Shown: positions 11,130 through 42,712 of the stretch, in pieces
How positions within the stretch are numbered: position 1 is the stretch's first letter
Layout of the letters: the number at the start of each line of letters is the position of its first letter
Source of the DNA: Patescibacteria group bacterium
GTDB lineage: Bacteria; Patescibacteriota; Patescibacteriia; JAHJFT01
Direction of reading: 5' to 3'
Length of the DNA stretch: 64,000 nucleotides
NCBI GenBank assembly: GCA_028710985.1
Contig: JAQTTB010000001.1
Coordinates: 231,397 to 295,396, forward strand
Notes under the pieces: generated by a model
Told to the model about the DNA's origin: nothing
The model's input: the letters and a program-made list of their open reading frames with translations, nothing else
The model's database searches: none
Program-made: the position numbers and the translations under genes

Positions 11130-11139
11130 AATTATAAAA

Positions 11140-11385
11140 ATGTTCACAACCTATATCTTAAAAAGTTTAAAAAATGGTAAACATTACATTGGGCATACTA
11201 ATGATATGCCGGCGCGATTAGAACGGCATAACCAGGGAAGGGTTAAGTCAACAAAAAATGGACGCCCCTGGGAATTAATTTATTCAGAAATATTTAAAAC
11301 AAAATCGGAAGCTAATCGTCGGGAATTTGAAATAAAGAGTTATAAAGGCGGGATATTATTTAAAAAACTTTTCAAACTCATTTAA
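11140..11385 (+). CDS. GIY-YIG nuclease family protein (UPF0213-like)
   Basis: YILKSLKNGKHYIGHTNDMPARLERHNQG...KSEANRREFEIKSYKGG carries the GIY-YIG core with conserved Arg/Glu/Asn residues. The ORF ends 1 nt before the tRNA-Ser. Confidence 0.85.
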   Translation: MFTTYILKSLKNGKHYIGHTNDMPARLERHNQGRVKSTKNGRPWELIYSEIFKTKSEANRREFEIKSYKGGILFKKLFKLI

Positions 11386-11386
11386 C

Positions 11387-11476
11387 GGAGGAGTGGCCGA
11401 GTGGTTGAAGGCGCCGCTCTCGAAAAGCGGTATGCCCGAAAGGGTATCGTGAGTTCAAATCTCACCTCCTCCGCCA
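11387..11476 (+). tRNA. tRNA-Ser (anticodon CGA), long variable arm, CCA encoded
   Basis: GGAGGAG-TG-GCC-GAGTGGTTGAA-GGC-G-CCGCT-CTCGAAA-AGCGG-(18-nt variable arm)-GTGAG-TTCAAAT-CTCAC-CTCCTCC-G-CCA. Confidence 0.9.
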
Positions 11477-11487
11477 ACCAAAATATT

Positions 11488-11931
11488 ATGCAAATTTCAA
11501 AAAATGATGTCCAATACAATATATTGAATGAAGAATTTTTGCTTGCACAGCGGCAAATGGACAAATACGACCAGCTTTCAACTACCATTAAAACCTGGGC
11601 AGTTACGCTGTGGGTAGCCGCGTCCGGCTGGGTGTTCCAAACGGAAACGAAACAGGTCGCCCTCTTAGGAGCGCTGCTAGTACTCATCTTCTGGTTCTTT
11701 GACAGCTACAATAAAGTTTATCGTACCAACTACAAGAAACGCCGTGACGAAATCCAAAATGGCTTACAAATTCTTTTTTTCGGCCGTCCCTTACCCACGG
11801 ATTTTTTATCCCCCAACCTTCCGATTCATGACGAAAAAAATGTCGTTCGAAGCATGTTTCTTCTACACGTTGGATTGCCTTACGCAATACTTATCATCAT
11901 TTCACTTCTGATCTATGCTAATTTCAATTAA
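11488..11931 (+). CDS. small hypothetical membrane protein (3 predicted TM helices)
   Basis: The start is placed at MQISKNDV, just after the tRNA. The ORF-track version (11401) overlaps the tRNA. It is bounded by copies of the tRNA-Ser 3' end. Confidence 0.45.
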   Translation: MQISKNDVQYNILNEEFLLAQRQMDKYDQLSTTIKTWAVTLWVAASGWVFQTETKQVALLGALLVLIFWFFDSYNKVYRTNYKKRRDEIQNGLQILFFGRPLPTDFLSPNLPIHDEKNVVRSMFLLHVGLPYAILIIISLLIYANFN

Positions 11932-11954
11932 AGACGACGGGGACAAAATCGCTT

Positions 11955-12033
11955 TCACCTCCTCCGCCAACCAAAATATTCAAAATTTTAAGTCGACGTA
12001 GCGGAGCGAAGTCGCTCTCACCTCCTCCGCCAA
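11955..12033 (+). repeat. two extra copies of the tRNA-Ser 3' end plus flank (att-like direct repeats)
   Basis: TCACCTCCTCCGCCAACCAAAATATT at 11955-11980 equals 11462-11487 (tRNA 3' end + CCA + 11 nt flank). A shorter copy, TCACCTCCTCCGCCAA, lies at 12018-12033. Confidence 0.75.
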
Positions 12034-12167
12034 ATTAACAAGTTAGAACCTAAGTAAAATAAGGGTATTTGGACAGCGAAAAGCCGATTTCGTCAGGAAG
12101 TCGGTTTTTTGTATTATTTTTTAACAGGGTGTACAATATAATCAATATATTTTAGTAAAGATAAATT

Positions 12168-12365
12168 ATGCCTACAATCAGTAAAAACATTCGCAAATTA
12201 AGAGAACAAAAAGGTATATCGCAAGATAGGCTTTCAAAACTGGCAAATATCTCTTTGAATACAATCGCAAAACTGGAACTCGACGAAACTCAAAATCCAA
12301 CCATTGAAACTTTGCAGAAAATTGCAAAAGCCCTAGATGTCAAAGTTGAGGATTTAATAAAATAA
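12168..12365 (+). CDS. XRE-family helix-turn-helix transcriptional regulator
   Basis: A 65-aa protein, IRKLREQKGISQDRLSKLANISLNTIAKLE, with a classic Cro/C1-type HTH. Confidence 0.75.
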   Translation: MPTISKNIRKLREQKGISQDRLSKLANISLNTIAKLELDETQNPTIETLQKIAKALDVKVEDLIK

Positions 12366-12369
12366 ATTT

Positions 12370-13488
12370 ATGGCCAGAGAAGCATCAATTAAAAATCTTA
12401 CAAATGCGAAAAGGGCAAAGAACGATGAGTTTTATACTCAGTACATCGATATTCAGAAAGAAATTGAAAAGTATTTAGATTACAACCCTAATACATTCCG
12501 AGCTAAGGTGGTGTATTGCAACTGCGACGATCCGTTCGAGAGCAATTTTTTTCGTTATTTTGTACTCAATTTCAACAAGCTTGGATTGCAACAGCTAATT
12601 ACAACGAGCTACAAACCATCGCCCGTCGCCAACACGCAACTGGGATTATTCGGTGATGACAAAACACTTGCAAAAACAAAAGGCCGTTCAAAGGTAACTG
12701 CCAATAAATTTATTATCAATGAAGTGAAAGATATAGACGGCGATGGAGAGTTCAATCTAAAAGATGTTGCCAAACAGTTAAAGGCAAACAAAAACAACGA
12801 ATGGATGCCCCTTGAGAAAGATGGTGACTTCAGAAGTCCCGAATGCATAGCATTACTGGAACAGTCTGATATCGCGGTAACCAATCCGCCGTTTAGTTTG
12901 TTTCGTGAGTATGTTAAACAACTTTTTGATTACCAAAAAAAGTTTTTGATTATTGGCAATATTAATTGCATAACTTACAAGGAGGTATTTCAAAAAATTA
13001 AAAATAATGAAATATGGCTTGGTAATGGAATGGGAAGATGGATTTCTGGTTTTATTGTACCTGAATCCTACAACTTGTACGGAACGGAGGCTCGGATAGA
13101 TGAAGATGGAAATAGAATTGTTGCCACCAATAATTGTTTGTGGCTTACCAATCTTGACCATGGTCGCCGTCACCAACCGTTGCCACTTATGACAATGAAA
13201 GAAAATTTGAAATACAGCAGACACAAAGAAATCAAAGGCAAAAAAGCGTATGAAAAATACGATAATTATGATGCGATAGAAGTATCTTTTACCGATGCGA
13301 TTCCAAGCGATTATAAAGGTGCAATGGGTGTGCCAATAAGTTTTTTGGATAAGTACAATCCTGAACAATTTGAGATATTAGGAATGGACGATCACAGGAT
13401 GCAATATCCTAATTGGAGAGGCAGAGGCCCTGACTTGAATGGAAAGCCCGCTTATAGAAGAGTTATCATCAGGCATAAGAAAAAATAA
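12370..13488 (+). CDS. N6-adenine DNA methyltransferase (NPPF motif IV; tentatively EcoRI-methylase-like family)
   Basis: DIAVTNPPF is the (D/N)PP(F/Y) catalytic motif. The N-terminal NDEFYTQ and [15 protein letters not shown] resemble the M.EcoRI family, but I am recalling this from memory and have not verified it. Confidence 0.75.
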
Positions 13489-13489
13489 T

Positions 13490-14659
13490 ATGAATACAAC
13501 TTTAAAAACCAATATCACTGTTAAAGAAATCTGCGACGGCTTTGTCTATAACGAACTTGAAGGCAAGGGTTTGTTTGGCTTGTCTGGCAAGCTCACTATT
13601 CAGCCGGAATATCAGCGAAATTATATTTATGCATCCGATGGCGGCAAAAGAGAGATGGCTGTAATTGAATCAGTCCTAAAAGAATATCCAATAGGATTGA
13701 TTTATTTCAATAAAGTTTCTACCGAAAACCTAGAAGTTTTAGACGGACAGCAACGCATCACAAGTCTCGGACGATTTATCACCGACAAATTTGCCATCAA
13801 GGACGAAAATGGCATGGAGCAATATTTTGGCGGTATGGCAAAAGACAAGCAAACCAAAATTTTGGAAACGAAACTTCTCATTTACGAGTGCGAGGGCACA
13901 GAAAGCCAGATAAAAGAATGGTTTAGGACCATAAATATTGCCGGCGTTCCGCTCAATAATCAAGAATTACTCAATGCCGTGTATTCTGGCCCATTCGTGA
14001 CTAGGGCTAAAGAGGAATTCAGTAATAGCCAAAACGCCAATATTCAAAAATGGAGTGCATATGTATCGGGTAGTGCAAACAGGCAGGAATTTTTGGAATG
14101 TGCTCTTGATTGGGTAAGCAGAGGCAATATCGGCGACTACATGAGCAAGCATCGCAAAGACAAAAACATCGATGTGTTGAAAAAATATTTCAACACAGTC
14201 ATTCATTGGGTATCTAGCGTATTTACCGATGTAGAAAGCGAAATGCGCGGGCTTAAATGGGGACGATTGTACGAGGAATATCACAAAGAGAAATATAATC
14301 CAACCAAAGTATCCGCTGAGGTGCGTGAGCTCTATGGTGACTTTTTTGTTAAAGATAAAAAGGGAATTTTTGAGTACATTTTAGGTGGTAAAAACGATAC
14401 AAAATTGCTTAATATTCACATTTTTGACGAACCAACTAAAAGAGCTATTTACGCAAAACAAACTAAGGAAGCTGAAACCAAAGAGAAATCAAACTGTCCA
14501 CATTGCGCTATTGGGCACGACGCTAATAAGGAAAAGATTTGGAGTTTCGGCGAAATGGAAGCGGATCATGTATCAGCGTGGAGCAAGAGTGGCGCGACTT
14601 CAGCGAAGAATTGTGAGATGTTGTGCAAAACCCACAATCGAGCGAAGGGAAATCGATAA
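13490..14659 (+). CDS. DUF262 (ParB-like, DGQQR) N-terminal domain fused to a C-terminal HNH (DUF1524-like) nuclease; GmrSD/SspE-like architecture
   Basis: [17 protein letters not shown] is the DUF262 signature. The C-terminus (CPHCAIGHD...[32 protein letters not shown]) is an HNH motif. The start is set at MNTTLK, 2 nt after the MTase stop. Confidence 0.8.
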
Positions 14660-14665
14660 AATAAT

Positions 14666-14860
14666 ATGGCAAATCAAACAGACAATAAAATAATGAGTGT
14701 GCCAGAGCAAATATTCGACCAGTTTCTAACGGAATTGGGAGAACAAAAAATACCGGAAGAAGTTATCGCTCGCTTAAGAAAAACTCTTGTAGACAATGGG
14801 CAGATCTCGGTTGATGCTCTCAAACAAGCATTGTTTTACAGTGATAGCACAGATGTATGA
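14666..14860 (+). CDS. small hypothetical protein (64 aa), translationally coupled to the downstream ATPase
   Basis: Its stop overlaps the ATG of the next gene (ATGA at 14857-14860). It is acidic with no known domain. Confidence 0.4.
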   Translation: MANQTDNKIMSVPEQIFDQFLTELGEQKIPEEVIARLRKTLVDNGQISVDALKQALFYSDSTDV

Positions 14861-17331
14861 TTAAGATTGACACAATAAAAATTGAAGAGTTTCGTGGCAT
14901 ACGCAACTTGACACTGGAGTTTAACGGAAAAAATTACGCTGTATGCGGACCAAACGGAACAGGTAAAAGTGGAGTGGTCGATGCTCTAGAGTTTGCTCTT
15001 ACAGGGAATATATCGCGCTTGTCTGGCGAAGGTATGGGTAATGTTTCCGTCAAAGAACACGCACCACATGTCGATAGTAAAAATAATCCCGAAAAAGCTC
15101 GCATAAACATTACATTTAAAATACCAACACTTGAAAATAAGCAAGTGACGCTCGCGAGGACAGTCAAAAATTCTACAACGCCAAGTATAAATCCATCATC
15201 ACCGGAAATACTTGAGATACTTTCACAATTTGATGGGCATCCTGAGTTTGTATTATCTCGACGCGAGATTATTCGGTATGTCATTTCAAAACCGGGCGAC
15301 AGATCAGCGGAAGTTCAGGCACTATTGCGTCTCGATAAAATTGGCGATTTACGGAGCAGTCTACTGACCATATCAAACACATACAGCAAAGAGTCAAAGG
15401 ATTCAAAAAAAGTTCAGGATCAAGCAAGCGAAAGTTTAGCACAAGGTTTGGAAATAACTGATTTGGTTAAAGCAAAGATTTTAGAAGCGGTAAATACAAG
15501 ACGCACTGTTCTCGGCTTAACGTCACTTACGGATTTAACAGCCACGACAGCTTTAAATGATGGATTAGAAACAAGTGTAAAATCTCCGGCTGTGCCGAAA
15601 GTGAATAAGGTTTCGGCAACAGCTGATCTAAAGACTTGGCGAGAGGTATCGCAAAAAATGACGGCTGAAAGTGTGCGGTCGGAGTGTTCAGAGTTGAAAG
15701 ATCAATTAACTGTTTTGAGTAGTAATCCTATTGTTACTGAGAGTGTAACGCGCGAGAAATTTTTACGCTCGGCGATAGATTTTGTAACGGAAGAAGCTTG
15801 TCCCGTTTGTGATACAAAATGGGACATATCTACATTGCAGGGTATTATCCGCTCGAAACTTGAAGGATTTGAAGAAATCACAAAGATGCGCGCTAGCCTT
15901 GAAAATCGGTTGGAACCAATTATAACTCTTGTCGACTCGCTTGATAACGCAACCGCTTTAGCTGAAAAATTAACGAAAGTCTTGACAACTGAACATACGG
16001 CAGGTCTTGCAGCTTATCGAGCAACATTATCGTCATACCGCAAGGCATTGAAAGATTTTTTGCCATTGACGGAAGCTATACCAGCAATTGTAAATATCAC
16101 AGAAATTCCTGCTGACGTAACATCTGCAATTGAAGCGATAGAAAAAGCTGTCGCAATTATTCCAGAGCCAACACAACAAGATGCGGCACGAGATTTTATT
16201 GTGCGAGCACAAGATCGCCTTGAGGCATACAGAAAAGTAGCTCGCGAAGCAGATAAGGCAAAGCAGCGGGCTGATTTATCAAAGAAGGTTTACGACACAT
16301 ATGTAGATATCAGCACCAAAGCGTTGGAGGGTGTTTATAAAGATGTAGAAGGCGAGTTCTCTAAACTGTATCGCTCGGTGAACGGCGAAGACGAGAATAG
16401 TTTTACAGCAAAGCTGGTTCCGTCTATTGGCAAATTAGGTTTTGATGTTGATTTTTATGGACGAGGGCATTTCCCTCCTGGCGCGTATCACAGTGAGGGA
16501 CACCAAGACGCGATGGGGCTTTGTTTGTATCTAGCACTAATGAGAAAACTCCAAGGCACTAATTTCAGATTTGCCGTACTCGACGATGTGCTCATGTCTG
16601 TTGATTCGAATCACCGCCGAGAAGTGTGTAATCTTCTTAAGCAACAATTTCAAGACACTCAATTTATCCTTACAACGCATGATGAAGTATGGTTAAAACA
16701 AATGACGACTGTTGGGCTTATCGCATCAGGAAACGCAACACGCTTTAGCAATTGGACTCCCGACCATGGTCCTGCGGAATGGAAAACGCGCGACGTGTGG
16801 ACTGAAATAGACACTGCTTTGAATGCAAACGATGTTCAATCAGCGGCCAGTCGCCTTCGGTATTATCTGGAGTATGTTTTTAGAGAAGTATGTGACAGCT
16901 TGCGAGCACAAGTTGAGTTTAAGGGTGATGGACGCTATGGGCTTGGGGATACCCTAGCTCCGGCCGTGGCACGCTTTCGTAAGCTTATGGTTGAAGGTAA
17001 AGAGGTTGCGGAATCACGGAGCCAAACTGATGTTGCAAAAGCTCTCCAATTGCAAGAAAAGAACCTTGCAGATTCTTTAGTCGCGACCAACGCTGAACAA
17101 TGGCAGGTTAATCCGGCTATTCACTATAACGAATGGGCGAATCTTTCGGTTAATGATTTTAATCCCGTGGTTGCTACTTTTCGTAATTTGGTGCAAAAAT
17201 TCTTTTGTGAAAAGCCAGAGTGTAGTAGTTTTGTATATTTAACTACGACGCCACCAAAAACGCCGGATGCAGTTCGCTGTAATTGTGGATTGATAAATAT
17301 AAACCTAAAGAAACCGGCGCAGAAAGATTAA
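14857..17331 (+). CDS. SMC/Rad50-like ABC ATPase (AAA_15/AAA_23-type head, long coiled coil, putative CxxC zinc hook)
   Basis: The N-terminal Walker A is GPNGTGKSGVVDALEFAL. The C-terminal Walker B and D-loop are FAVLDDVLMSVD and ILTTHDE. About 450 aa of predicted coiled coil lie between them, carrying CPVCDTKW near the middle. A C-terminal Cys cluster (CEKPECSS...VRCNCG) follows. Confidence 0.8.
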   Translation: MIKIDTIKIEEFRGIRNLTLEFNGKNYAVCGPNGTGKSGVVDALEFALTGNISRLSGEGMGNVSVKEHAPHVDSKNNPEKARINITFKIPTLENKQVTLARTVKNSTTPSINPSSPEILEILSQFDGHPEFVLSRREIIRYVISKPGDRSAEVQALLRLDKIGDLRSSLLTISNTYSKESKDSKKVQDQASESLAQGLEITDLVKAKILEAVNTRRTVLGLTSLTDLTATTALNDGLETSVKSPAVPKVNKVSATADLKTWREVSQKMTAESVRSECSELKDQLTVLSSNPIVTESVTREKFLRSAIDFVTEEACPVCDTKWDISTLQGIIRSKLEGFEEITKMRASLENRLEPIITLVDSLDNATALAEKLTKVLTTEHTAGLAAYRATLSSYRKALKDFLPLTEAIPAIVNITEIPADVTSAIEAIEKAVAIIPEPTQQDAARDFIVRAQDRLEAYRKVAREADKAKQRADLSKKVYDTYVDISTKALEGVYKDVEGEFSKLYRSVNGEDENSFTAKLVPSIGKLGFDVDFYGRGHFPPGAYHSEGHQDAMGLCLYLALMRKLQGTNFRFAVLDDVLMSVDSNHRREVCNLLKQQFQDTQFILTTHDEVWLKQMTTVGLIASGNATRFSNWTPDHGPAEWKTRDVWTEIDTALNANDVQSAASRLRYYLEYVFREVCDSLRAQVEFKGDGRYGLGDTLAPAVARFRKLMVEGKEVAESRSQTDVAKALQLQEKNLADSLVATNAEQWQVNPAIHYNEWANLSVNDFNPVVATFRNLVQKFFCEKPECSSFVYLTTTPPKTPDAVRCNCGLININLKKPAQKD

Positions 17332-17441
17332 ATCTGCTCGGATAAACCTAGCAATTGTTGTTTACTAAAAAGAGAGCCGCCCGCGTCAGCGGACGGGCTT
17401 GTATGCGCGCTAATAGGGATTTTATATAGAATAATCCACCT

Positions 17442-17612
17442 CATCTTTGCCTTTGACCGACTTAGGTTTAGGCGTCTCAAACCACTCCGGATGAACTTCG
17501 TAGATAGCCCTTAATTCCTGTATACTTTTATCAAGATCCTCGAATTTGAGCCATTTTCTTGGTTCAAAGTTCCGGAGATCGTGCCCGCCAAATTATAAAA
17601 AACTAATTACCA
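17442..17612 (-). pseudogene. start-less ORF remnant (...RNFEPRKWLKFEDLDKSIQELRAIYEVHPEWFETPKPKSVKGKDEVDYSI*), a possible gene fragment at the island boundary
   Basis: The open reading frame on the minus strand has no start codon and runs into the 5' region of the 17616 gene. It is too short for the ORF track. Confidence 0.3.
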
Positions 17613-17615
17613 AAT

Positions 17616-18101
17616 ATGTCAGATCAAGAAATTAAATCAACCGGCTGTTGCGAGCCGTTCAATCCCGAACCGTGGCATGAAAAAGAAATTGTCTGGAAAG
17701 ATAAAATTTTTGTCAAAGACTATGTTACGAGTTTTTTGCACATTCCGCTCAATATGGGGAAAAAAATCATAAAAAATATAGCGCTGATTGAAAAAGCCGG
17801 CGCTAAATCCCCGTATCAGCTCATGCTCTGCGACGAAAAATCTCTTTGGGGTTCTGACATTTATATTGATGTTGCGAAAGATGTCCCCGGCGCGCAGATG
17901 GCAAAAATTTCCGGCACTTTCCTAACGAAAGTTTTTGAAGGTCCGTATCAAAACGCCGGCAAATGGGCGGTTGAAATGAATGAATATGTGAAAAACAAAG
18001 ACAAAGAAATTAAAAAATTATATTTTTCTTACACCACCTGCCCAAAGTGCGCCAAGGCTTACGGCAAAAACTACGTGGTGCTCTTCGCGCAGATTGACTA
18101 A
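17616..18101 (+). CDS. hypothetical protein with N-terminal CC and C-terminal CPKC Cys pairs
   Basis: A 161-aa ORF with no confident family assignment. Confidence 0.5.
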   Translation: MSDQEIKSTGCCEPFNPEPWHEKEIVWKDKIFVKDYVTSFLHIPLNMGKKIIKNIALIEKAGAKSPYQLMLCDEKSLWGSDIYIDVAKDVPGAQMAKISGTFLTKVFEGPYQNAGKWAVEMNEYVKNKDKEIKKLYFSYTTCPKCAKAYGKNYVVLFAQID

Positions 18102-19743: not shown

Positions 19744-20880
19744 ATGAAAATTCGCCCTGCACATCTCATTATTGGTTCAATAGTTTTGTTTATATTGGAT
19801 TTTTTAACCTTAGCCAATGACACTATTTTTCCAAACCGTGAACCGAAAGGAATTGCAACAGTTATCGTCTTTGGCTGCGCATTAACTTTTATCGCGGGGA
19901 CCGCGTGGGCAATATTTAGGCTGATCTTTAAAGGGAAAAGGTCGCGCAAGGCAACCACCGCGGCCGCTCCGCCAGCGATCGCGCCGGAAAAAAGCCGATT
20001 CTCTTTAACCACATTGGAAATTGTATTTAATCGAATTTTTGCGGTCTTGTTAATCCTCTCCGCCCCGTTGTTGTTATTTAATCCTTTCACTGTCCCGACG
20101 GTGGTGATCTTTGTCGTGTTTGCCTTGTTTCTTTTTTTCGCTAAAAGATACCATCCGGTAATCAACGCCATCTTCGCGCTAATCGCCCTCGGCGTATATT
20201 TTATTCCCTTGCCGATCGATTGGGGATTTTTTCTCGGCCTAAAAGAATGGCGGATGGGCGGTTTTGTTTTTCACCCAATCATTATCTTTTTTTACCTTTC
20301 CCCATTAATTTTTATTTCTCTTTCTGCCAGAAATATTTTAGGAAATATCCTGTCATTTTTTAAGCCAAACACACGCTGGCGTAATCTTTTATTTTTCCTT
20401 TCTCTAATAACCGCGATAATAGTAATCCTGGCCTATCCGTTGCTAAGCAGTATTAAATTACGTGAACGAGCAATGGAAGATGATGATGGTAGTAGCCAAT
20501 TGTCCTATGCCCTGACAAAACAAGAACTTAAAATAGAACCGGGAAAGAGCGGCTCTAGTAGTAGTGCTCTCGCCCGGCGGTATTACACGGCCCGTTTTGA
20601 TCCGGCCACGAAAAAATATATCTATCGCTTGAATCTTGCGGATCCGCTTTCCGCGTCTATTGAATTCACGGCGGTTGAAACCGACGGTGAAAAAATTAAT
20701 TTTACAACCGACTCTCGAATACAGTGTTTGAATTGCCAGAAAGATACAAGCGATCCTTACGGCTTGGTTTTCCCCGCCGGCAAAAATATTGATTTCACCT
20801 TGACTAGCGACAAGCTAATTATGGCGATAAAATTCACTGAGCCCGGAGACAAGGTGGCTAAGTTTATTTTTTGGAAATAA
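19744..20880 (+). CDS. hypothetical polytopic membrane protein with a C-terminal soluble domain
   Basis: A 378-aa protein with about 8 hydrophobic segments followed by a ~130-aa hydrophilic domain. Confidence 0.5.
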   Translation: MKIRPAHLIIGSIVLFILDFLTLANDTIFPNREPKGIATVIVFGCALTFIAGTAWAIFRLIFKGKRSRKATTAAAPPAIAPEKSRFSLTTLEIVFNRIFAVLLILSAPLLLFNPFTVPTVVIFVVFALFLFFAKRYHPVINAIFALIALGVYFIPLPIDWGFFLGLKEWRMGGFVFHPIIIFFYLSPLIFISLSARNILGNILSFFKPNTRWRNLLFFLSLITAIIVILAYPLLSSIKLRERAMEDDDGSSQLSYALTKQELKIEPGKSGSSSSALARRYYTARFDPATKKYIYRLNLADPLSASIEFTAVETDGEKINFTTDSRIQCLNCQKDTSDPYGLVFPAGKNIDFTLTSDKLIMAIKFTEPGDKVAKFIFWK

Positions 20881-21012: not shown

Positions 21013-22347
21013 ATGCCCAAACGCGACATCCAAAAATCATTTTACAAATACCATCAGCCGGTTGATTTCCGGAACACCTGGCGCATTTTTAAAATCATGT
21101 CCGAGTTCGTTGAAGGATACCACCTGCTCTCCGGCCTGAAGCGCGAAGTCACATTCTTCGGCTCGGCGCGCGCCAAACCCTCAAGCCGGCATTACCGCGA
21201 AACCGAAAAATTGGCAAAAATACTTGGAAAAAATGGCCACGCCATTATCACCGGCGGCGGACCCGGCATCATGGAGGCCGCGAACAAGGGCGCGGCCGCG
21301 GTCGGCGCCGAATCCATTGGCCTCAACATCCAGTTGCCAAGCGAACAGATTCTAAACCCCTACTGCAAAAAATCCCAGGGTTTTTATTATTTCTTCACCC
21401 GCAAGGTCATGCTCACCTCCCCGTCGCAGGCATTTTTCTTTCTGCCCGGCGGCTTTGGCACCCTGGATGAATTCTTTGAAGTTATTGACCTCATCGAAAT
21501 CAACCGCATGCCCCCCGTGCCCGTGGTGGCCATGATGAGCGATTTTTGGAAAGAACTTTATAATTTTCTGAGCGAATATTCGCTAAAACGCATCGGTGCC
21601 ATCAAACCGAAAAACCTTGAATGCATCCATATCGTTGACACGGCCGAGGAGGCCGCCGAGTTCGCGCGCGGCGTCAAAGAACGGCCGTTCTTTGGAGATA
21701 TTAATCCGACCGGCAATCCGTCAAACATTGACTGGAAAGTCTTCCGCATCATGGCCGAACTGGTAGAGGGCTTTGAATTCGTAAACCGCCTAAAAAACGA
21801 CGTTACCATTCTCGGCACCGGCAAACTCGGGCCCGGAACTCCCTATTACCAGGCCGCCGAAGAACTCGGCCGCGTGCTTGGCCATGACGGCTACACCATT
21901 GTGACCGGCGGCGGGCCCGGCATCATGGAGGCCGCGAACAAAGGCGCTTTTGAGGCCGGCGCCGATTCCGTGGGCCTGAATATCAGTTTTGACGGCACGG
22001 TGCGCGCCAACCCCTACGTCAAGCGCTCCATGGGCTTCTTCTTTCCCTTCACCCGCAAGCTCATTATCACCGCGCCGTCGCTTGCCTTTGTCTGCTTCCC
22101 CGGCGGCTTCGGCACCCTGCACCAGCTTTTTGAGCTCCTCGTGCTCATGCAAACCGGCAAAATGGGCCGCATGCCCATCATTCTTTTCGGCCGGGAATTC
22201 TGGAAGCCGCTTGCCGATTACCTCGGCCGAGTCGCCTGCCGGCTCTATAGCGCCCTGGATCCCGGGGATCTCAAACTGTTTGATATCGTGGATTCGGTGG
22301 AAGAAGCCGTTCTTATCATCAAGAAAGTCCCAAAAACAAAATCCTGA
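21013..22347 (+). CDS. tandem-duplicated LOG-family (TIGR00730 Rossmann-fold, cytokinin riboside 5'-monophosphate phosphoribohydrolase-like) protein
   Basis: Two complete LOG modules, each with GGGPGIMEAANKGA and PGGFGT(L)(D/H)(E/Q) motifs, lie at residues ~30-220 and ~235-440. An extended -10 (TGgTATAAT) sits at 20994-21002. Confidence 0.75.
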   Translation: MPKRDIQKSFYKYHQPVDFRNTWRIFKIMSEFVEGYHLLSGLKREVTFFGSARAKPSSRHYRETEKLAKILGKNGHAIITGGGPGIMEAANKGAAAVGAESIGLNIQLPSEQILNPYCKKSQGFYYFFTRKVMLTSPSQAFFFLPGGFGTLDEFFEVIDLIEINRMPPVPVVAMMSDFWKELYNFLSEYSLKRIGAIKPKNLECIHIVDTAEEAAEFARGVKERPFFGDINPTGNPSNIDWKVFRIMAELVEGFEFVNRLKNDVTILGTGKLGPGTPYYQAAEELGRVLGHDGYTIVTGGGPGIMEAANKGAFEAGADSVGLNISFDGTVRANPYVKRSMGFFFPFTRKLIITAPSLAFVCFPGGFGTLHQLFELLVLMQTGKMGRMPIILFGREFWKPLADYLGRVACRLYSALDPGDLKLFDIVDSVEEAVLIIKKVPKTKS

Positions 22348-22440: not shown

Positions 22441-23310
22441 ATGAACAAGATAACAAAAGTCGTCATCCCGGTCGCCGGTTTCGGCACGCGCTTTCTGCCC
22501 GCCACCAAGGCAATGCCCAAAGAGATGCTTACCGTGGTAGATAAACCCGTAATTCAGTACGTGGTGGAGGAAGCCGTCGCCGCGGGCATCACCGATGTAA
22601 TTCTGGTCACCGGCGCCTCAAAGCGCGCGGTTGAGGATCATTTTGATTACAACCACGAATTGCAGAACTGGCTCAAGAAACAGGGAAAAAACGATCTGCG
22701 GGAGGAAATAAAAAAAATTGCCGACATGGCAAATTTTATTTATATCCGGCAGAAGGGACCGTACGGCAACGGTACGCCGATCCTCTGCGCCGAGAAGATA
22801 ATCGGCGACGAGCCGTTCGCCGTTCTCTGGGGAGATGAATTTTTTTACGGCAAAAAAAACCGCCTGTCCCAGCTTATCCGCGTTTTTGAGAAATACGGCG
22901 ACCCCGTTCTCACCGCCTACGGAGTAAAATCCGCGGACACCGTGCGATACGGCATGCTTGACGCGGTTAAGATTGAAAAAAACATTTACCAGGTAAAAAA
23001 AATCATTGAAAAACCCGGACCGAAAAAATCGCCCTCTCTCCTCGCCTCCCTCGGCGGCTTTATCCTGACTCCGGACATCTTTCACGCGCTCCGCAATACC
23101 AAGCGCGGAAAAGGCGGCGAGCTCTGGCTCACCGACGCGATTCATAATCTTTCCAAGCGCCGGCCTCTTTACGCCTGCGAGGTGAGTGACGCGACGTATT
23201 ACGACACCGGCTCCAAGCTCGGCTATCTCAAGGCAAATGTTGATTTTGCCCTGCGCCGGCCGGATCTAAAAAAAGATTTTATCAAATATCTCAAATCTTT
23301 GAAAATATGA
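22441..23310 (+). CDS. galU: UTP--glucose-1-phosphate uridylyltransferase
   Basis: KVVIPVAGFGTRFLPATKAMPKEMLTVVDKPVIQYVVEEA matches the GalU N-terminus. A TTGCTG-17-TATAAT promoter lies at 22398-22426. Confidence 0.85.
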   Translation: MNKITKVVIPVAGFGTRFLPATKAMPKEMLTVVDKPVIQYVVEEAVAAGITDVILVTGASKRAVEDHFDYNHELQNWLKKQGKNDLREEIKKIADMANFIYIRQKGPYGNGTPILCAEKIIGDEPFAVLWGDEFFYGKKNRLSQLIRVFEKYGDPVLTAYGVKSADTVRYGMLDAVKIEKNIYQVKKIIEKPGPKKSPSLLASLGGFILTPDIFHALRNTKRGKGGELWLTDAIHNLSKRRPLYACEVSDATYYDTGSKLGYLKANVDFALRRPDLKKDFIKYLKSLKI

Positions 23311-24701
23311 AAAAAATATTTTTTTCTTTTGTCATCCTTTCTCTGATCGCCACCGCCGGCTTCGGCTGCAAAACCCAATCTGAAGCCGAAAAAGAAGCCA
23401 CCAAACCTGTCACTCTGAATTTTTGGGGAGTTTTTGACGAATCCGACGCCATCCAGCCGCTTATCACCGCCTACCGCGCCAAGCATCCCAATGTCACCAT
23501 CAACTACAAGATGTACCGGTTTGACGAATACGAAGACGAGCTGCTGAACGCCCTGGCCGAAGACCGCGGACCGGATATCTTTATGGTGCACAACCACTGG
23601 ATGCGCGGCTATCTCGCCAAAATCCTGCCCCTTCCGGCCGAACTCACCATCGCCTATGTCACGCAGTCCGGAGGCGCTCTGGGAAGCGAAACCAAAGCCA
23701 CCCTGGCAAAAGAAAAAACCATGACCCTGCGCGCGCTTCAGGACAGCTTTGTGCAGGTCGTGGCCGATGACGCCGTGGCGCCGGTCTGGAACGCGACCGA
23801 CGAAGTGAATGAAAATAAAATCGTCGGACTGCCGCTTTCCGTGGACACGCTCGCGCTTTATTATAACCGCGACATTTTGAACGCCGCCGGCATCGCCGAG
23901 CCGCCGACCACCTGGACCGATTTTCTGGAACAGGTAAAAACCATCACCAAACTCAACGCCGACGGCGGCATCGCCCAGTCCGCGGCCGCGATCGGCACAT
24001 CTTCCAACATTGAACGGTTCAGCGACATCGTTTCCGCGCTCATGATGCAAAACGGCACCGAAATGACCAATGAATCCGGATTCGCCACGTTCAATAAAAT
24101 CCCCAAAGCCCTTACCGGCCGCAGCGAACCCCCGGGATTCGGCGCGGTCCGTTTTTACACCGACTTTGCCAACTCCGGAAAAGAAGTCTACACCTGGAAT
24201 GACGACTTTCCGAATTCACTGGACGCTTTTTCCACCGGCCAGACCGCGTTCTTTTTTGGCTACTCGTATCATCTTTCCCAAATCCGCACCAAGGCGCCCA
24301 AGCTCAATCTCGGCATCGCCCGGCTCCCCCAGCTTGAGGGCAATCCGGAAGTAAATTATGCCAACTACTGGCTGAACTCGGTTTCCGCAAAGAGCAAGAG
24401 TTCAAATTACGCCTGGGACTTTGTGCAGTTTGCCGCAAGCGAAGCCAACGTCAAGGCCTATCTTGACGCCGCCAAGCGCCCGACCGCTCTGCGCTCGCTC
24501 CGCGACAGCCAGCTTGAAGATGTGGACCTTTCGGTTTTCGCTTCCCAGCTTCTCACGGCCAAAGACTGGTACCGCGGCAAAAACTGGGCCGCGGTTGAGC
24601 AGACCTTTGCCGACATGATTGATTCACAGGTCTACGGCACCATGGAGCTTAAAGACGCAATTAATCTTGCGGTGAGTAAAGTAAATCAGACCATTCAATG
24701 A
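23307..24701 (+). CDS. extracellular solute-binding lipoprotein (ABC transporter SBP family 1-like)
   Basis: There is a signal peptide with a lipobox-like AGFGC, and the size and composition are typical of a sugar-binding SBP. No permease or ATPase lies adjacent. Confidence 0.55.
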   Translation: MKKIFFSFVILSLIATAGFGCKTQSEAEKEATKPVTLNFWGVFDESDAIQPLITAYRAKHPNVTINYKMYRFDEYEDELLNALAEDRGPDIFMVHNHWMRGYLAKILPLPAELTIAYVTQSGGALGSETKATLAKEKTMTLRALQDSFVQVVADDAVAPVWNATDEVNENKIVGLPLSVDTLALYYNRDILNAAGIAEPPTTWTDFLEQVKTITKLNADGGIAQSAAAIGTSSNIERFSDIVSALMMQNGTEMTNESGFATFNKIPKALTGRSEPPGFGAVRFYTDFANSGKEVYTWNDDFPNSLDAFSTGQTAFFFGYSYHLSQIRTKAPKLNLGIARLPQLEGNPEVNYANYWLNSVSAKSKSSNYAWDFVQFAASEANVKAYLDAAKRPTALRSLRDSQLEDVDLSVFASQLLTAKDWYRGKNWAAVEQTFADMIDSQVYGTMELKDAINLAVSKVNQTIQ

Positions 24702-25576
24702 AAAAATACATAACAATTATTCTCGCGATAATCATCGTGCTTGCTCCGATTCCGGTTTTGGCGTTTCAGCTTATTCCTTCCGGCTGTACCGGGCAGAATG
24801 TCACGACCCAAAACTGCGGTCTTACGGAAATTTTTCAGACGTTCATTAATTTCGCGAACTTTCTCCTTAGCATCGCCGGCTCGGTCACGCTGCTCATGTT
24901 CATCTATGGCGGTTTTGTCTGGCTCACTTCGGGCGGGGCTTCGGATAAAATAAAAAAAGGCAAAGACATCATGGTGAACACGACCATCGGGCTTGTGATC
25001 ATGCTTGCCGCCGCGACCGTAATTTATTCGGTCGGCACTTTTCTCTGCGGCGGCGACCAATCATGCCTCCGCCAGCTTAATATATACGGCGCGGCCGAGG
25101 GCCAGGAAGGCGGCATGGACTGCCGCAAGCAGGAAAATGACGGCAAAACCTGCGGCACGGAAAAAAACTATGTCTGCTCGTACGAGGCGCGAAAATGCGT
25201 CACCCGCTGTGAAGCCGACCAAAATCTCGCGAGCCGCGGCTACGCCTGTCAGACCGTTCCGCTCGCGAGCAAAGACAAAGCCTCGGCAAGCCTTTACGCC
25301 GAATCCTACAGCTGCAAATTAAATCTCTGCCCCGGCGATTGGGACACCCTCTGCTGCCCGGCGCACGAAGCCGCCACCACCTGCTGCAAGTGTGAAATCA
25401 ACGATGCCTCTGCCACTACTTATTATTTTCCGTCCGATTCGGGCGCTGACTGCATCACTGCCTGCGAATCGGCGCGCGATCTCATAGGAGCAACCACGAT
25501 TCCTGAAATAACGCCCGGCATTGAGCGCACCGAAGACCCGGGCTGCGAGGAAGCGCTTTCTCGAAGAGGGATATAA
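24698..25576 (+). CDS. TrbC/VirB2-like pilin domain with a C-terminal Cys-rich extension (paralog 1 of 6)
   Basis: The N-terminal ~110 aa are homologous to the downstream pilin paralogs (SVTLLMFIYGGFVWLTSGG...KGKDIMV..IGLVIML). The C-terminal ~170 aa carry 22 Cys. Confidence 0.6.
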   Translation: MKKYITIILAIIIVLAPIPVLAFQLIPSGCTGQNVTTQNCGLTEIFQTFINFANFLLSIAGSVTLLMFIYGGFVWLTSGGASDKIKKGKDIMVNTTIGLVIMLAAATVIYSVGTFLCGGDQSCLRQLNIYGAAEGQEGGMDCRKQENDGKTCGTEKNYVCSYEARKCVTRCEADQNLASRGYACQTVPLASKDKASASLYAESYSCKLNLCPGDWDTLCCPAHEAATTCCKCEINDASATTYYFPSDSGADCITACESARDLIGATTIPEITPGIERTEDPGCEEALSRRGI

Positions 25577-25578
25577 AT

Positions 25579-26214
25579 ATGAAAATTTTTTCAATTATTA
25601 CAATCGCCATTCTCATCTTTGCCGCCGTTCCGGCTTTGGCCGAGGATGTTGGCTCCTGCGTCTGCGACTTTACCATGAGCGGGATTCTTATTACCGGCCC
25701 GACCGGCTGCTCCGGGATTCCCGAAGCGCAATGCAACTGGAACAGCGGCGCTTCAAATTGCGGATGCATGGGCGAAATTCGCCGCAGTGTCACGCAAGAA
25801 GATTGTTTTCCCGACGCCGCCGGCATGATTAGCGCAACCTATGGTATCACCTCTCCCACCTATATAATTACCGGATCCTGCTCCTGGACCCCTGCGCCTT
25901 CGACCGGTGAAGAAACCGGCGAAACTCCTTCAACCGGCGCCGGCACTCCGCCGCGCCTGGAATTTGAGCCGCCCCTCGGCACCACGGACGTGAATGAGCT
26001 CATCGGCTATATCATCCGCGCCGTCACCGGCATTGTCGGCAGTATCGCGCTTCTCATGTTCGTAGCCGGCGGATTCGTCTGGATGACCGCTGCCGGAAAC
26101 GAAGAGCGCGTCAAGCTCGGAAAAAATATCCTGATCTGGTCAACCCTCGGCCTCGTCGTCATCTTCTCGGCCTATGCCGTCACGCGCTATATCTTAACCG
26201 CCTTACTGGAATAA
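25579..26214 (+). CDS. Cys-rich N-terminal domain fused to a TrbC/VirB2-like pilin (paralog 2)
   Basis: The C-terminus GSIALLMFVAGGFVWMTAAGNEERVKLGKNILIWSTLGLVVIFSAYAV matches the family motif. Confidence 0.6.
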   Translation: MKIFSIITIAILIFAAVPALAEDVGSCVCDFTMSGILITGPTGCSGIPEAQCNWNSGASNCGCMGEIRRSVTQEDCFPDAAGMISATYGITSPTYIITGSCSWTPAPSTGEETGETPSTGAGTPPRLEFEPPLGTTDVNELIGYIIRAVTGIVGSIALLMFVAGGFVWMTAAGNEERVKLGKNILIWSTLGLVVIFSAYAVTRYILTALLE

Positions 26215-26215
26215 T

Positions 26216-26602
26216 ATGAAATCATTTTTTATTGTTTCAATCGCTCTCTTCGCGCTCACCCTGCTTATCCCAACCGCTTTAGCTATTACGACCCCCACTT
26301 CCACCGATACCGGCGTTCCGCAAAAAGTTGAGCTCAATCCGCCGTTCGGCCAAGCGGCAGCGGCGCCGGATGTCTTTATCCAGACCATGATCGGCCGCAT
26401 CATCCAGTACGCCCTGGGCATTGTCGGCTCAATTGCGCTTCTTATATTCGTGGCCGGCGGCTTTATTTGGTTGACCTCAGCCGGCAATGCTGATAGAATT
26501 AAGTCAGGCAAAAACATGATTGTTTGGGCGGTAATCGGCCTCGCGGTAATTTTTTCCGCCTACGCAATTACAAAATTTATTTTAACCGCCCTATTGGGCT
26601 GA
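26216..26602 (+). CDS. TrbC/VirB2-like pilin (paralog 3)
   Basis: A signal peptide is followed by GSIALLIFVAGGFIWLTSAGNADRIKSGKNMIVWAVIGLAVIFSAYAI. Confidence 0.65.
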   Translation: MKSFFIVSIALFALTLLIPTALAITTPTSTDTGVPQKVELNPPFGQAAAAPDVFIQTMIGRIIQYALGIVGSIALLIFVAGGFIWLTSAGNADRIKSGKNMIVWAVIGLAVIFSAYAITKFILTALLG

Positions 26603-26631
26603 ATTTAATAATTAATTACTTAATAAAAAGT

Positions 26632-27015
26632 ATGCGTAATTTAATGAAGAATACTGTTGCGCGCAATATCTGCGCTTTCGCAATTCTCTCCCTCATCTTC
26701 GTTCCGCTTTCAGCCGCTTTGGCCCTGGAAGTCGGCATTGAAGAGGTTGAGTCCGAGATTGAGCTCGGCAAACGCGATATCCGCGCCACCGTCGCTTCAA
26801 TCATCAACGTGGCCATGGGCCTCCTCGGCATCGTCGCCGTGGGCATAATCCTCATCGGCGGCTTTCAGTGGATGACCGCCGGCGGCAACGAGGAAAACGT
26901 AACTAAAGCAAAACAAAGAATTATTCAGGGCATTATCGGACTTGCCATCATTTTGGCTTCATGGGCAATCGCCCGCTTCGTGCTCGAGAGCCTGGTTACC
27001 GCAACTCAGGACTAA
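26632..27015 (+). CDS. TrbC/VirB2-like pilin (paralog 4)
   Basis: The start is at MRNLMKN. The motif is GIVAVGIILIGGFQWMTAGGNEENVTKAKQRIIQGIIGLAIILASWAI. Confidence 0.65.
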   Translation: MRNLMKNTVARNICAFAILSLIFVPLSAALALEVGIEEVESEIELGKRDIRATVASIINVAMGLLGIVAVGIILIGGFQWMTAGGNEENVTKAKQRIIQGIIGLAIILASWAIARFVLESLVTATQD

Positions 27016-27022
27016 ATAAATT

Positions 27023-27424
27023 ATGAAACTCACCCGGGCGCGCAAATTGTTATTGATTCTGCCGCTTCTTGCGTGGGTTTTAATTTCCGCAAACGCGGTT
27101 CTCGCGCTCACGGTTTCCGAAACCGGCCTTGAAACCACGGCCGAAGCCTCCGAGCTTCCCAAGGGCGAACTTACCGCCACTGTCGGACGCGTCATCTCCA
27201 TTTTTCTCTCGCTCGTTGGTGTAATCTTCTTTGTCCTCCTAATTTACGGCGGAATCCTCTGGATGACTGCCATGGGAAATGAAGAAACCGTCAAGCGCGC
27301 AAAGAATCTGATCACGAGCGCCATTCTCGGCCTGATTATTATCTTTGCCGCCTACGCCATCGCCCAGTTCGTGATTTCCATGCTTCTCGGCGCCGAAGTC
27401 CAGCCCACTGCCCCAACCCCATAA
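27023..27424 (+). CDS. TrbC/VirB2-like pilin (paralog 5)
   Basis: GVIFFVLLIYGGILWMTAMGNEETVKRAKNLITSAILGLIIIFAAYAI. Confidence 0.65.
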   Translation: MKLTRARKLLLILPLLAWVLISANAVLALTVSETGLETTAEASELPKGELTATVGRVISIFLSLVGVIFFVLLIYGGILWMTAMGNEETVKRAKNLITSAILGLIIIFAAYAIAQFVISMLLGAEVQPTAPTP

Positions 27425-27452
27425 AAATCACATAATCCTTAATTAATAAATT

Positions 27453-27854
27453 ATGTTCAAGAATAAAATATTCTTTACGCTAAGCGTCATCACGCTTGTT
27501 TCGCTTGTATTCGCTCCTTGCCTCGCGCTTGCAGAAGGCACCGATCCGAATCCGGAAACCCTGCTTCAGCAAGCCGGTGAAAGCGCGGGATTCAGCGCCG
27601 GCACAGGCCAAGAACAGTTCCTGGAAATCGTCGGAAATATTATCACCGTGCTTCTCTCACTCCTCGGCGTCATCTTCTTTGTGCTCTTAATCTACGGCGG
27701 CTTCCTCTGGATGACCTCCCAAGGCAAGGAAGAAACAGTGAAAAAAGCCAAGCAATTAATTACCGACGCAATTATCGGCTTAGTTATCATCCTCGCGGCT
27801 TACGCGATTTCCGCATTCGTTATCGACGCTTTGGTCACCGCGACACTGGATTAA
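27453..27854 (+). CDS. TrbC/VirB2-like pilin (paralog 6)
   Basis: GVIFFVLLIYGGFLWMTSQGKEETVKKAKQLITDAIIGLVIILAAYAI. Confidence 0.65.
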   Translation: MFKNKIFFTLSVITLVSLVFAPCLALAEGTDPNPETLLQQAGESAGFSAGTGQEQFLEIVGNIITVLLSLLGVIFFVLLIYGGFLWMTSQGKEETVKKAKQLITDAIIGLVIILAAYAISAFVIDALVTATLD

Positions 27855-27861
27855 ACAATTT

Positions 27862-27897
27862 AAAAACCACCCCGTTCGCTATCGGGGTGGTTTTTTT
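27862..27897 (+). terminator. rho-independent terminator after the pilin array
   Basis: aaaaACCACCCCGttcgctatCGGGGTGGttttttt. Confidence 0.8.
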
Positions 27898-27985: not shown

Positions 27986-28852
27986 TCAGTCGTACTCGTG
28001 GAGGATGACGGTCCGATTGGACACGTCTTTGATGGACGCGGCCTTTTTCTTGTCGCCCTTGAGCACGCACTTGCCGCCGGTCATGTAGCAGACCTGGACA
28101 AGCACCTCGAAGGGGCCGAAAGACTCAACCGGAACGTAGCCATCGGCCTGGGGCGGAAGCAATGGGAGCATAACGATGCCGCCATCTTCCAGAACCGGCA
28201 GCACCATCTCTCCAGCCCAGATCACCTCCTTGCCGTTCACCCAGACCCGGAAGTAGGCGCCATCCTTGACGTCTTCGCCCGAGATGTGGATGTTGAGGTT
28301 AGAGCCAGCCGGCGGAGCATAGGTATAACCCGTGATTCCGGCCGGGAATGGCTGGTACGGCATCATGGATGCGCCGAACGGCGCGGGCGAGATGCCGTAG
28401 CCGTAGATGGGCGGGACCGGCTGGAGAACCGGCTTGGGCGGGGGCGGGAGTAGCGTCGGCTTGGCCTCGGCCTCCAACTTGGCGTTGATTGCCTCGGCCT
28501 GGGCGATGAGGTCCGTGAGCTCAGCGACCTTCTTCTCGTTGATCGCTTCGTTCTCGGAGATGGATTCCATTTCCACTTCCGCGACCACGGTCTTGGAAAC
28601 CGCGGCCGGCTCGCTTCCGAGCATGCTCTCGAGCTCGGCGTTCTTGGTCTCGTAGCTGAGCGCGAGATCGTACATCTCGTCGCCCCGCGCCTGGGCGTCC
28701 GCGAGCTCGGCCTCCAGGTCATTCACCTCGGACTGCAGACTCGCGAGGTCGCTCGTCGCGCTCGCGAAGTCGTCGGAACTCACCGGACACTTGGGAGCCG
28801 CGGCGCACGCCGCAAGAACCACCATCACGAACAGAGTTAGGTACGTCTTCAT
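27986..28852 (-). CDS. hypothetical secreted protein with a coiled-coil N-terminal half, a Pro-rich linker and a C-terminal beta-rich domain (first gene of the high-GC island)
   Basis: A signal peptide (MKTYLTLFVMVVLAACAAAP) with a GGAGGA RBS. The segment LLPPPPKPVLQPVPPIYGYG is Pro-rich. GC is about 65%. Confidence 0.5.
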   Translation of the reverse strand: MKTYLTLFVMVVLAACAAAPKCPVSSDDFASATSDLASLQSEVNDLEAELADAQARGDEMYDLALSYETKNAELESMLGSEPAAVSKTVVAEVEMESISENEAINEKKVAELTDLIAQAEAINAKLEAEAKPTLLPPPPKPVLQPVPPIYGYGISPAPFGASMMPYQPFPAGITGYTYAPPAGSNLNIHISGEDVKDGAYFRVWVNGKEVIWAGEMVLPVLEDGGIVMLPLLPPQADGYVPVESFGPFEVLVQVCYMTGGKCVLKGDKKKAASIKDVSNRTVILHEYD

Positions 28853-28972: not shown

Positions 28973-29584
28973 TCAGGGCGAGGGCGTCGTCGCGGCGAGC
29001 GCTTCCTCGGTCTCCTCGATCTCCAAGTCCAGGATCTTTTCGGCGATCGCCTTGAGTTCCGCGATCTTGGCCGAGTAATCCGGACTCGCTGACGGCGTTG
29101 ACCAGACACTCGCAGCTGCAGATGCGTACTGGCTGTACGCCTGTTGCTGCGCGGTCATGACCTGCGCCATTTGGATGCCGGCCTGGGTCTTGACCCAGGT
29201 GTCGCACCAGTTGGCGCTCATGTACGGACAGCCGGGATATCCCATCATGGGAGAACCCCAGCCAGACATGCCGTAGCCGCCGCCGTAGCCCATGCCCATA
29301 CCCATGTAGTAGGGGTATCCGCCGTGAATCTCACGGCAGGTCTCAGCGTCGTACGATCCCAGACATGCTTCCCACGCCTGCTGGAGCTTGAACTGGTAGT
29401 TCACGAGCTCGGCCTGCATGGAGTACTGGTAGGCCATCTGTTTATCTTGGAGCACGAGCGAACCGTAAGCCGGACTCGGCAGATAGGGGCTGACGCCGTC
29501 GGCCGTCATGCCCGGGGACTGCACGGATGCATGGTAGCAACCAGCGAGCGCGAACGCGAAAAGAACGCAAACCAGCTTCTTCAT
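28973..29584 (-). CDS. hypothetical lipoprotein, Gly/Met/Tyr-rich
   Basis: The start is at MKKLVCVLFAFALAGC (lipobox) with a GGAGGA RBS. The segment YYMGMGMGYGGGYGMSGWGSPMMGYPGCPYM is low-complexity. High GC. Confidence 0.5.
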   Translation of the reverse strand: MKKLVCVLFAFALAGCYHASVQSPGMTADGVSPYLPSPAYGSLVLQDKQMAYQYSMQAELVNYQFKLQQAWEACLGSYDAETCREIHGGYPYYMGMGMGYGGGYGMSGWGSPMMGYPGCPYMSANWCDTWVKTQAGIQMAQVMTAQQQAYSQYASAAASVWSTPSASPDYSAKIAELKAIAEKILDLEIEETEEALAATTPSP

Positions 29585-29726
29585 GGCTATTTCCTCCTTG
29601 GTGATTGGCTGATTTTGAACTCTCAAATATACCATATTTTCACGATTTTGTCAATGCCCATGGGCAATTTTTTGGCTAAAAATCATCATAATTATGACAA
29701 AATATCCGGCCGTGAATATCGGATGT

Positions 29727-42693: not shown

Positions 42694-42712
42694 ACAGGCC
42701 ATGGCAGGCGGG

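Follow-up and report, generated by a model that had tools for sequence, protein, structure and literature searches.

Tandem arrays of genes for VirB2-like pilins are an established feature of Patescibacteria. In a survey of 3,035 genomes, made with the same Pfam model as is used here, 441 such arrays of 2-11 genes were counted, with a mean pairwise identity of 25% and a maximum of 54% (Quinonero-Coronel et al. 2025, PMC12102498). In Southlakia epibionticum an essential series of pilin genes lies inside the type IV secretion system (T4SS) cluster (Wang et al. 2023, PMC10633639), and a 2025 review describes this array as six VirB2-like pilins that are conserved in structure and divergent in sequence (PMC12857230). 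The Patescibacteria T4SS is essential for epibiotic growth (PMC12102498; PMC10633639; PMC12857230) and is thought to derive from the MPF-FATA class, which includes Mollicutes (PMC12102498). In Paceibacterales cultures, T4SS pilins ranked among the most strongly expressed genes without known function (PMC10936435), and what the Patescibacteria T4SS and its pilins do has been stated to be unknown (PMC11665869). Here we analysed a window of 64,000 nucleotides from contig JAQTTB010000001.1 (assembly GCA_028710985.1, positions 231,397 to 295,396 of the forward strand), in which six genes for pilin-family proteins, P1 to P6 (24698-27854, +), directly follow the gene for a solute-binding protein (SBP) lipoprotein. 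Because such arrays have already been published for Patescibacteria, a six-gene pilin array per se is not new. The linkage to an orphan SBP, the loci lacking VirB4, the conserved order of pilin subtypes and the confinement of Cys-rich domains to the termini do go beyond the papers that can be searched. The words 'solute', 'substrate-binding' and 'ABC' are absent from the main text of PMC12102498, where 'cysteine' occurs only with VirB1, and no paper tying SBPs or Cys-rich domains to these pilins was found in open-access or bioRxiv full text.

The host is a Patescibacteria (ABY1-like) bacterium, as the first-pass annotation of the window had implied in naming the Candidate Phyla Radiation (CPR), and the operon is chromosomal and conserved. 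By the published definition, at least two tandem PF18895 or PF04956 genes of low identity, the six genes form a Patescibacteria VirB2-like array. They share with the published arrays the phylum, the PF18895 family, the tandem co-directional arrangement (six genes as against 2-11), Sec-type signal peptides and a low mutual identity, which is 30-59% here. The array in the window differs from them in being led by an SBP gene, in having no T4SS cluster in the window, in its two Cys-rich members and in its fixed order of subtypes. Identical DNA was found on a 17.7-kb Logan contig (SRR22315508), on which the precomputed Pfam labels agree with our PF18895 calls. P1, P2 and P3 have exact counterparts among the NCBI proteins of a Patescibacteria metagenome-assembled genome (locus tags PHW53_), and the NCBI name of an identical protein is 'MAG: pilin [Patescibacteria group bacterium]'.

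All six proteins exceeded the gathering score of PF18895 (T4SS_pilin; 26.6 bits) with 34.8-45.6 bits and E-values from 7.5e-12 to 1.8e-8. The individual scores were 34.8 bits for P1 (24698-25576, 292 aa), 45.6 bits for P2 (25579-26214, 211 aa), 35.8 bits for P3 (26216-26602, 128 aa, no Cys), 44.2 bits for P4 (26644-27015, 123 aa, as in the gene call on the public contig), 35.6 bits for P5 (27023-27424, 133 aa) and 34.8 bits for P6 (27453-27854, 133 aa), all on the + strand. Six adjacent matches with E below 2e-8 lie beyond chance, and membership of all six in PF18895 is established at the level of sequence profiles. P2 to P6 also align with positions 7-80 of the 80-residue model NF045849, the Mbov_0395 family of pilin-like proteins from Mycoplasma integrative and conjugative elements (ICEs), with E-values from 7e-10 to 1e-5. 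Their 24.8-38.5 bits stay below the curated cut-off of 40, and P1 has no match. The near full-length alignment of five of the six proteins and the place of Mollicutes in the MPF-FATA class liken the array to this family; the scores and the lack of integrase, relaxase and VirB4 genes near the array set it apart. A mobile-element or ICE context was also considered for the array and rejected on the same absence of these three genes, the neighbours being housekeeping genes.

The columns G61, G71, G72, W75, T77, G80, K89, G98, L99 and L116 are invariant in an alignment of the six proteins. They bear out the shared core described by the first-pass annotation, although P1 deviates from parts of the motif that it quoted. 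As it had also proposed, each of the six begins with a leading signal segment, a basic and hydrophobic N-terminus that closes near residue 22-29 with VLA or ALA; this call was made from hydropathy segments and VLA/ALA cleavage-like motifs. Two long hydrophobic helices follow, joined by a loop that is basic in all six proteins and contains the invariant K89. Hydropathy and AlphaFold2 (AF2) modelling thus agree with the architecture of PF18895, a signal peptide and two hydrophobic helices with a short loop. The AF2 model of P6, built from 56 sequences, shows a signal helix and helices at 52-88 and 93-131 with confidence (pLDDT) values of 88-96. In fold searches the best pilin-like neighbour in the PDB, ranked first or close to first, was the conjugation pilus of Aeropyrum pernix (8dfu), with probabilities of 0.96 and 0.72 and TM-scores of 0.60-0.65; these matches were non-significant.

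The signal peptide, the two-helix hairpin, the short basic loop, the sub-threshold PF04956 matches and 8dfu as best, though non-significant, pilin-like fold neighbour are points of likeness to the VirB2, TrbC and TraA pilins and to CedA1 of the archaeal Ced system. The six proteins differ from this group in failing the PF04956 cut-off and in having no sequence match to solved pilins, and from the pilins of diderm T4SSs also in their monoderm host and in the lack of VirB5, VirB1 and VirB4 nearby. Type IV pilus (T4P) pilins were tried as an alternative identity and rejected: the N-termini are of Sec type with no G/F-T-L-I-E-like class III leader, there are two transmembrane helices, and no T4P Pfam family matched. 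The array proteins are not T4P pilins because the class III leader is absent and two transmembrane helices are present. The pilins of Patescibacteria T4P resemble them as small secreted or membrane proteins thought to form surface filaments in contact with the host; they belong to another family and machinery, with one N-terminal helix and a globular head. The role in attachment and DNA uptake that the first-pass annotation had attached to CPR pilins was drawn from work on T4P and competence, that is from this other family, and is not supported for these six Sec-type proteins.

The genes are tightly packed. The spacers from P1 to P6 are 2, 1, 41, 7 and 28 bp, the third being 29 bp if P4 starts at an alternative ATG at 26632. 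The stop codon of the SBP gene and the start codon of P1 share 4 bp (ATGA), through which the two genes are predicted to be translationally coupled. A bidirectional intrinsic terminator with a 13-bp stem between an A-run and a U-run (27862-27897) begins 8 bases after the stop of P6 and is shared with a convergent gene (27986-28852, -). It folds with -22.3 kcal/mol (z = -5.0), a stability that 200 shuffled sequences never reached. No second outstanding site of this kind was found in the array, and the count of terminator-like sites in 22-30 kb equalled the shuffle expectation. The row of six co-directional genes, the short spacers, the overlap with the upstream lipoprotein gene and the strong terminator at the end of the array were therefore all as first annotated. 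At the DNA level the paralogs are at most ~70% identical. P3 has P2 as its nearest paralog (59% over the core), P5 and P6 are 51% identical, and neither long repeats nor invertible segments were seen in the DNA of the array.

The SBP gene (23307-24701, +) encodes a sugar/CUT1-like lipoprotein of 464 aa with full SBP_bac_1 (PF01547, E 4.5e-28, 99.6 bits as against a cut-off of 26 bits) and SBP_bac_8 (PF13416, E 3.3e-23) domains. G18 and C21 of its lipobox are invariant in 19 orthologs. In both respects, the two domains and the conserved lipobox Cys, it resembles the ABC solute-binding lipoproteins of the CUT1 type; it differs from them in that pilin-family genes occupy the usual place of the permeases and in that no permease or ATPase was found in 133 related loci. 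These screens were motif-based and used no hidden Markov models (HMMs): an ABC permease with an EAA motif was absent from all 133 loci, and the ABC-like ATPases there were only SMC or UvrA. Permeases and transporter ATPases were also absent from the Pfam tables of two loci (L001 and L051). The SBP is thus an orphan, without a cognate ABC permease or ATPase in the locus. A cryptic ABC transporter in which the pilins replace the permeases, an idea raised by six two-helix proteins following an SBP, was rejected, as pilin HMMs matched and no ATPase or permease motifs were present nearby.

The linkage between SBP and pilin genes was found from both directions. When loci were selected by their pilin genes, through P1-like patterns, an orthologous SBP gene (280-812 bits) lay directly upstream of the array in ~26 genomes, often with a 4-bp overlap. 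From 531 relatives detected in a scan of metagenome contigs with an SBP profile, 80 were retained, and in 55 of the 65 such loci with at least 500 nt of downstream sequence a pilin gene starts within 500 nt. Pilin genes are present in 23 of the 24 SBP-selected loci that extend at least 6 kb downstream (median six, range 0-9), and the ATGA overlap recurs in 10 SBP-selected loci. The outer neighbours vary by lineage, being GalU/LOG, typA...rpoB or SMC-ComM. Because they differ between lineages, the SBP-pilin junction is the conserved unit. The first-pass annotation was right about the adjacency of the lipoprotein gene but had treated it as mere context; it is the array's most conserved partner gene.

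In the window the SBP gene is itself preceded by a GalU-like gene (22441-23310, +), for which PF00483 (NTP_transferase) was found on the identical public contig and in L051. Its stop codon shares 4 bp with the start of the SBP gene, just as the SBP gene overlaps P1, and because of this overlap the transcription unit may begin with the GalU-like gene. Its linkage to the SBP-pilin unit is confined to the closest relatives, with ComM/SMC or typA upstream in other loci. A gene for a ComM/YifB-type Mg-chelatase-like ATPase (~505-540 aa) lies upstream of the unit in ~14 SBP-selected loci (L066, L074, L090, L093, L098-L100, L103, L105, L106, L116, L117, L119 and L121). It is directly upstream where coordinates can be compared, and SMC often precedes it. 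In the window, ComM is found at 52390-53979, 25 kb from the array. Synteny within the lineage or a connection with competence could account for the adjacency.

Across candidate phyla the arrays follow a recurring order: the SBP gene, a P1-like gene, one to three P2/P3-like genes, one P4-like gene and two to five P5/P6-like genes. The P2/P3-like genes of related arrays often carry large ectodomains, and P4 is the best conserved subtype (44-85% identity across related arrays), usually present as a single copy in mid-array. The relatives are metagenome-assembled genomes of Uhr-, Komeili-, Magasanik-, Falkow-, Kerfeld- and Buchananbacteria. L051, the closest relative with a long contig (P1 62% identical), has the same layout of GalU, SBP and six pilin genes. 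Because positional orthologs occur in distant genomes and the order of subtypes is kept, the sequences indicate old subfunctionalisation and not rapid turnover or interchangeable variants. A marine-biofilm relative (L002) has two P4-like genes at 4486-4869 and 6099-6482, each encoding 127 aa with 75% identity (176 bits) to P4 of the window, with a gene for a 320-aa Cys-rich pilin between them. A recent local duplication may explain this pair, in an array that is stable in other respects.

Two of the six proteins carry Cys-rich domains, and the first-pass annotation had placed both correctly, at the C-terminus of P1 and the N-terminus of P2, but its counts of 22 and ~14 Cys proved to be 20 and 8. 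In P1, two Cys precede the first helix (C30 and C40), and the other 18 lie from C117 to the C-terminus in a disulfide-rich domain of ~175 aa. All 20 are invariant across 12 orthologs with 51-63% identity. In the AF2 model, residues ~140-292 fold into a compact alpha/beta domain (pLDDT 81-89); the alignment was shallow, and the hairpin came out poorly. No relatives of the domain were found in Pfam or NCBIfam; a profile of it matched among PDB sequences only Fab light chains, which we regard as noise, and Foldseek gave no significant match in the PDB or BFVD. An exhaustive search of 1.84 billion representatives with the profile returned its own cluster and one marginal match only. The marginal match and several shorter P1-like proteins have a smaller module ending in ...C..LCPG....CC. 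Judged by these searches, the 18-Cys domain is without detectable relatives beyond the P1 subfamily. The 8 Cys of P2 lie in an N-terminal domain of ~110 aa between signal peptide and hairpin, which is followed by a Pro/Thr/Gly-rich linker. Among 9 orthologs of P2, invariance is confined to C76 and to a CxC that follows the signal peptide; the remainder is poorly conserved.

The same association of length and Cys content was seen in 225 pilin-family open reading frames (ORFs) of the related loci. At least 6 Cys are present in 75 of the 85 long members (at least 180 aa) and at least 10 in 55 of them; the short members rarely have any Cys. Extra domains were always terminal in a set of 231 pilin-family ORFs (45 N-terminal, 30 C-terminal, 9 at both ends). 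The hairpin spans at most 79 residues in all 231, and therefore there is no insertion in the loop. Pilins of the VirB2 type have both termini outside the cell and a basic loop in the cytoplasm. With such a hairpin both kinds of fusion, N- and C-terminal, would therefore be outside the cell, and extra domains at the termini alone fit this predicted topology. The adhesin-like role first suggested for the Cys-rich parts is compatible with their location at termini predicted to be external. Classical VirB2 pilins, to our knowledge, lack large Cys-rich domains at their termini. Outside SBP-led arrays, the hairpin module is kept in a 2217-aa pilin-family ORF with 80 Cys (L030, 9890-16543) and in one of 957 aa with 28 Cys (L037, 3716-6589). 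The 18 invariant Cys of P1 and the Cys-laden long members of the family imply extracellular oxidative folding; no Dsb/VKOR-type genes turned up among the ORFs scanned in the window, in which no search was aimed at them.

The reading that we favour, and which we hold to be slightly better than evenly balanced, is that a T4SS assembles the six proteins, as hairpin subunits exported by Sec, into a surface filament or conduit in which P1 and P2 are minor, decorated components and to which the SBP is a partner. Each pilin would be exported by Sec, cleaved by signal peptidase I and inserted as a hairpin of two helices, its termini outside the cell and its short basic loop inside. P3 to P6 would build the body of a heteromeric surface filament or envelope-spanning conduit, assembled by an MPF-FATA-like T4SS (VirB4/VirB6/VirB3) whose genes would lie in another part of the genome. 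The external disulfide-rich terminal domains of P1 and P2, as minor or decorating subunits, may touch the host cell, and the co-translated SBP lipoprotein may act as a functional partner that binds a ligand or a host glycan.

Several observations weigh against a T4SS-assembled filament. The first-pass annotation had called the proteins TrbC/VirB2-like pilins; the PF18895 scores, from the kind of profile check on which it had made its call depend, uphold the pilin family in all six, but the cut-off of PF04956 (TrbC/VirB2; 27.9 bits) was not reached by any of them (P2 22.9, P3 19.4, P4 17.1 and P6 19.9 bits; P1 and P5 without a match). Homology to classical VirB2 is plausible from such weak signals. 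The fold has low specificity, as a two-helix hairpin is generic and ATP synthase subunit c scores alike. A profile of 56 pilin sequences matched none of the solved pilins among PDB sequences and gave one chance match to a haemagglutinin. VirB4, VirB6 and other T4SS or T4P assembly genes, which the first-pass annotation had proposed to look for elsewhere in the genome, are absent from the window, and in none of the 133 related loci did a VirB4- or VirB6-like or other T4SS ORF turn up in the 8-10 kb next to the operon. Ectodomains of pilin-family proteins range from 100 to more than 2000 aa, and on so many members they are hard to place on every subunit of a helical pilus. We know of no report of filament imaging for the PF18895 family.

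Alternatively, the proteins may not be filament subunits: the PF18895 hairpin would be a membrane anchor that displays disulfide-rich ectodomains at the cell surface and, with the orphan SBP, forms a T4SS-independent module for capture or import of molecules from the host or for host recognition, which we regard as possible though on balance improbable. The operon is linked to the SBP gene and not to virB4 in every locus examined. As neither an ABC permease nor a transporter ATPase accompanies the SBP in the 133 loci, the SBP must act with something else. The frequency of Cys-rich terminal domains among the long members, the sizes of up to 2217 aa and the non-significant fold matches to pilins would also suit an anchor. 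However, four of the six consist of little but the hairpin, with ~25-30 residues exposed and no evident domain for display, and the models matched are linked to conjugation (PF18895, and below threshold TrbC and the Mycoplasma ICE family). In Saccharibacteria, moreover, arrays of the PF18895 family sit in an essential T4SS cluster (PMC10633639). A related proposal, that the SBP-led operon is a distinct and widely conserved Patescibacteria module apart from the virB4 cluster, in which the SBP acts directly with a heteromeric hairpin assembly and its ectodomains to recognise or import host material, appears unlikely to us; if true, the SBP-led module would be a new uptake or host-docking device and not a conjugation-type pilus.

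The divergence of the paralogs, both in protein and in DNA, would also be expected of a variation cassette, in which six interchangeable major pilins serve antigenicity or host range. Variation has been suggested for Patescibacteria arrays (PMC12102498), as it has been proposed for the VirB2 paralogs of Bartonella and Anaplasma. We give this explanation little credence, as positional orthologs occur in distant genomes (P1 51-63% identical across 12 clusters, P4 44-85% identical), the subtype order is kept, the six genes are packed as one unit with a single terminator, and the DNA showed neither long repeats nor invertible segments. Recombination-based phase or antigenic variation was rejected on the lack of such repeats and segments and on the positional conservation of the subtypes. 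Just as improbable in our judgement is an adjacency of SBP and pilins that is inherited synteny without function, the array being an ordinary VirB2-like one beside a transport-related gene. It is true that flanking rpoB, typA, SMC and ComM genes are partly syntenic in subsets of the loci and that one broad lineage may account for all loci. Yet the SBP-pilin junction persists, often overlapped by ATGA, while the outer neighbours change, and there is no transporter partner near the SBP. A T4SS-assembled structure with decorated minor subunits and an SBP partner stays our preferred explanation.

The surroundings of the array were also annotated. Upstream of the GalU-SBP-pilin unit lies a gene for a tandem double LOG/SLOG (Lysine_decarbox/LDcluster4) protein (21013-22347), preceded by a gene for a 378-aa membrane protein with a weak SLATT_5 match (19744-20880). 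A duplicated LOG gene is present upstream in L051 too. Downstream of the array two convergent genes (27986-28852 and 28973-29635, both -) encode lipoprotein-like products, with a signal sequence followed by Cys and no Pfam family, one of which has a coiled-coil, Ala/Glu-rich region. L051 has genes of similar size in their place. A low-GC island (11387-18100; GC 0.37-0.43 as against ~0.50 elsewhere) starts right after tRNA-Ser(cga) (11387-11476). Its genes encode an EcoRI-like adenine methyltransferase (12370-13488; PF13651, E 4.5e-127), a nuclease with GmrSD_N and HNH domains (13439-14659) and an 824-aa SMC_N/AAA_23 ATPase (14857-17331), and the region is probably an integrated defence island. 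Small GIY-YIG-like ORFs, judged by eye, abut tRNA genes at 11113-11385 (+) and 42840-43070 (-); the adjoining tRNAs are tRNA-Ser and two tRNA-Arg at 42621-42831.

A large part of bacterial diversity belongs to Patescibacteria, which live attached to host cells, and their docking to hosts and their uptake of building blocks still await explanation. The T4SS and its pilins are essential in the single species in which this was tested (PMC10633639). The locus described here adds little on the existence of pilin arrays. It does provide a conserved partner gene, the orphan SBP, as a handle for work on ligand binding and on interaction with the pilins. The ordered pilin subtypes suggest a defined heteromeric assembly over a set of interchangeable variants, and as a general rule the disulfide-rich domains are found only on termini predicted to be external. 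If the coupling of SBP and pilins is functional, recognition of solutes or glycans would be tied to a T4SS-type surface structure in these bacteria.

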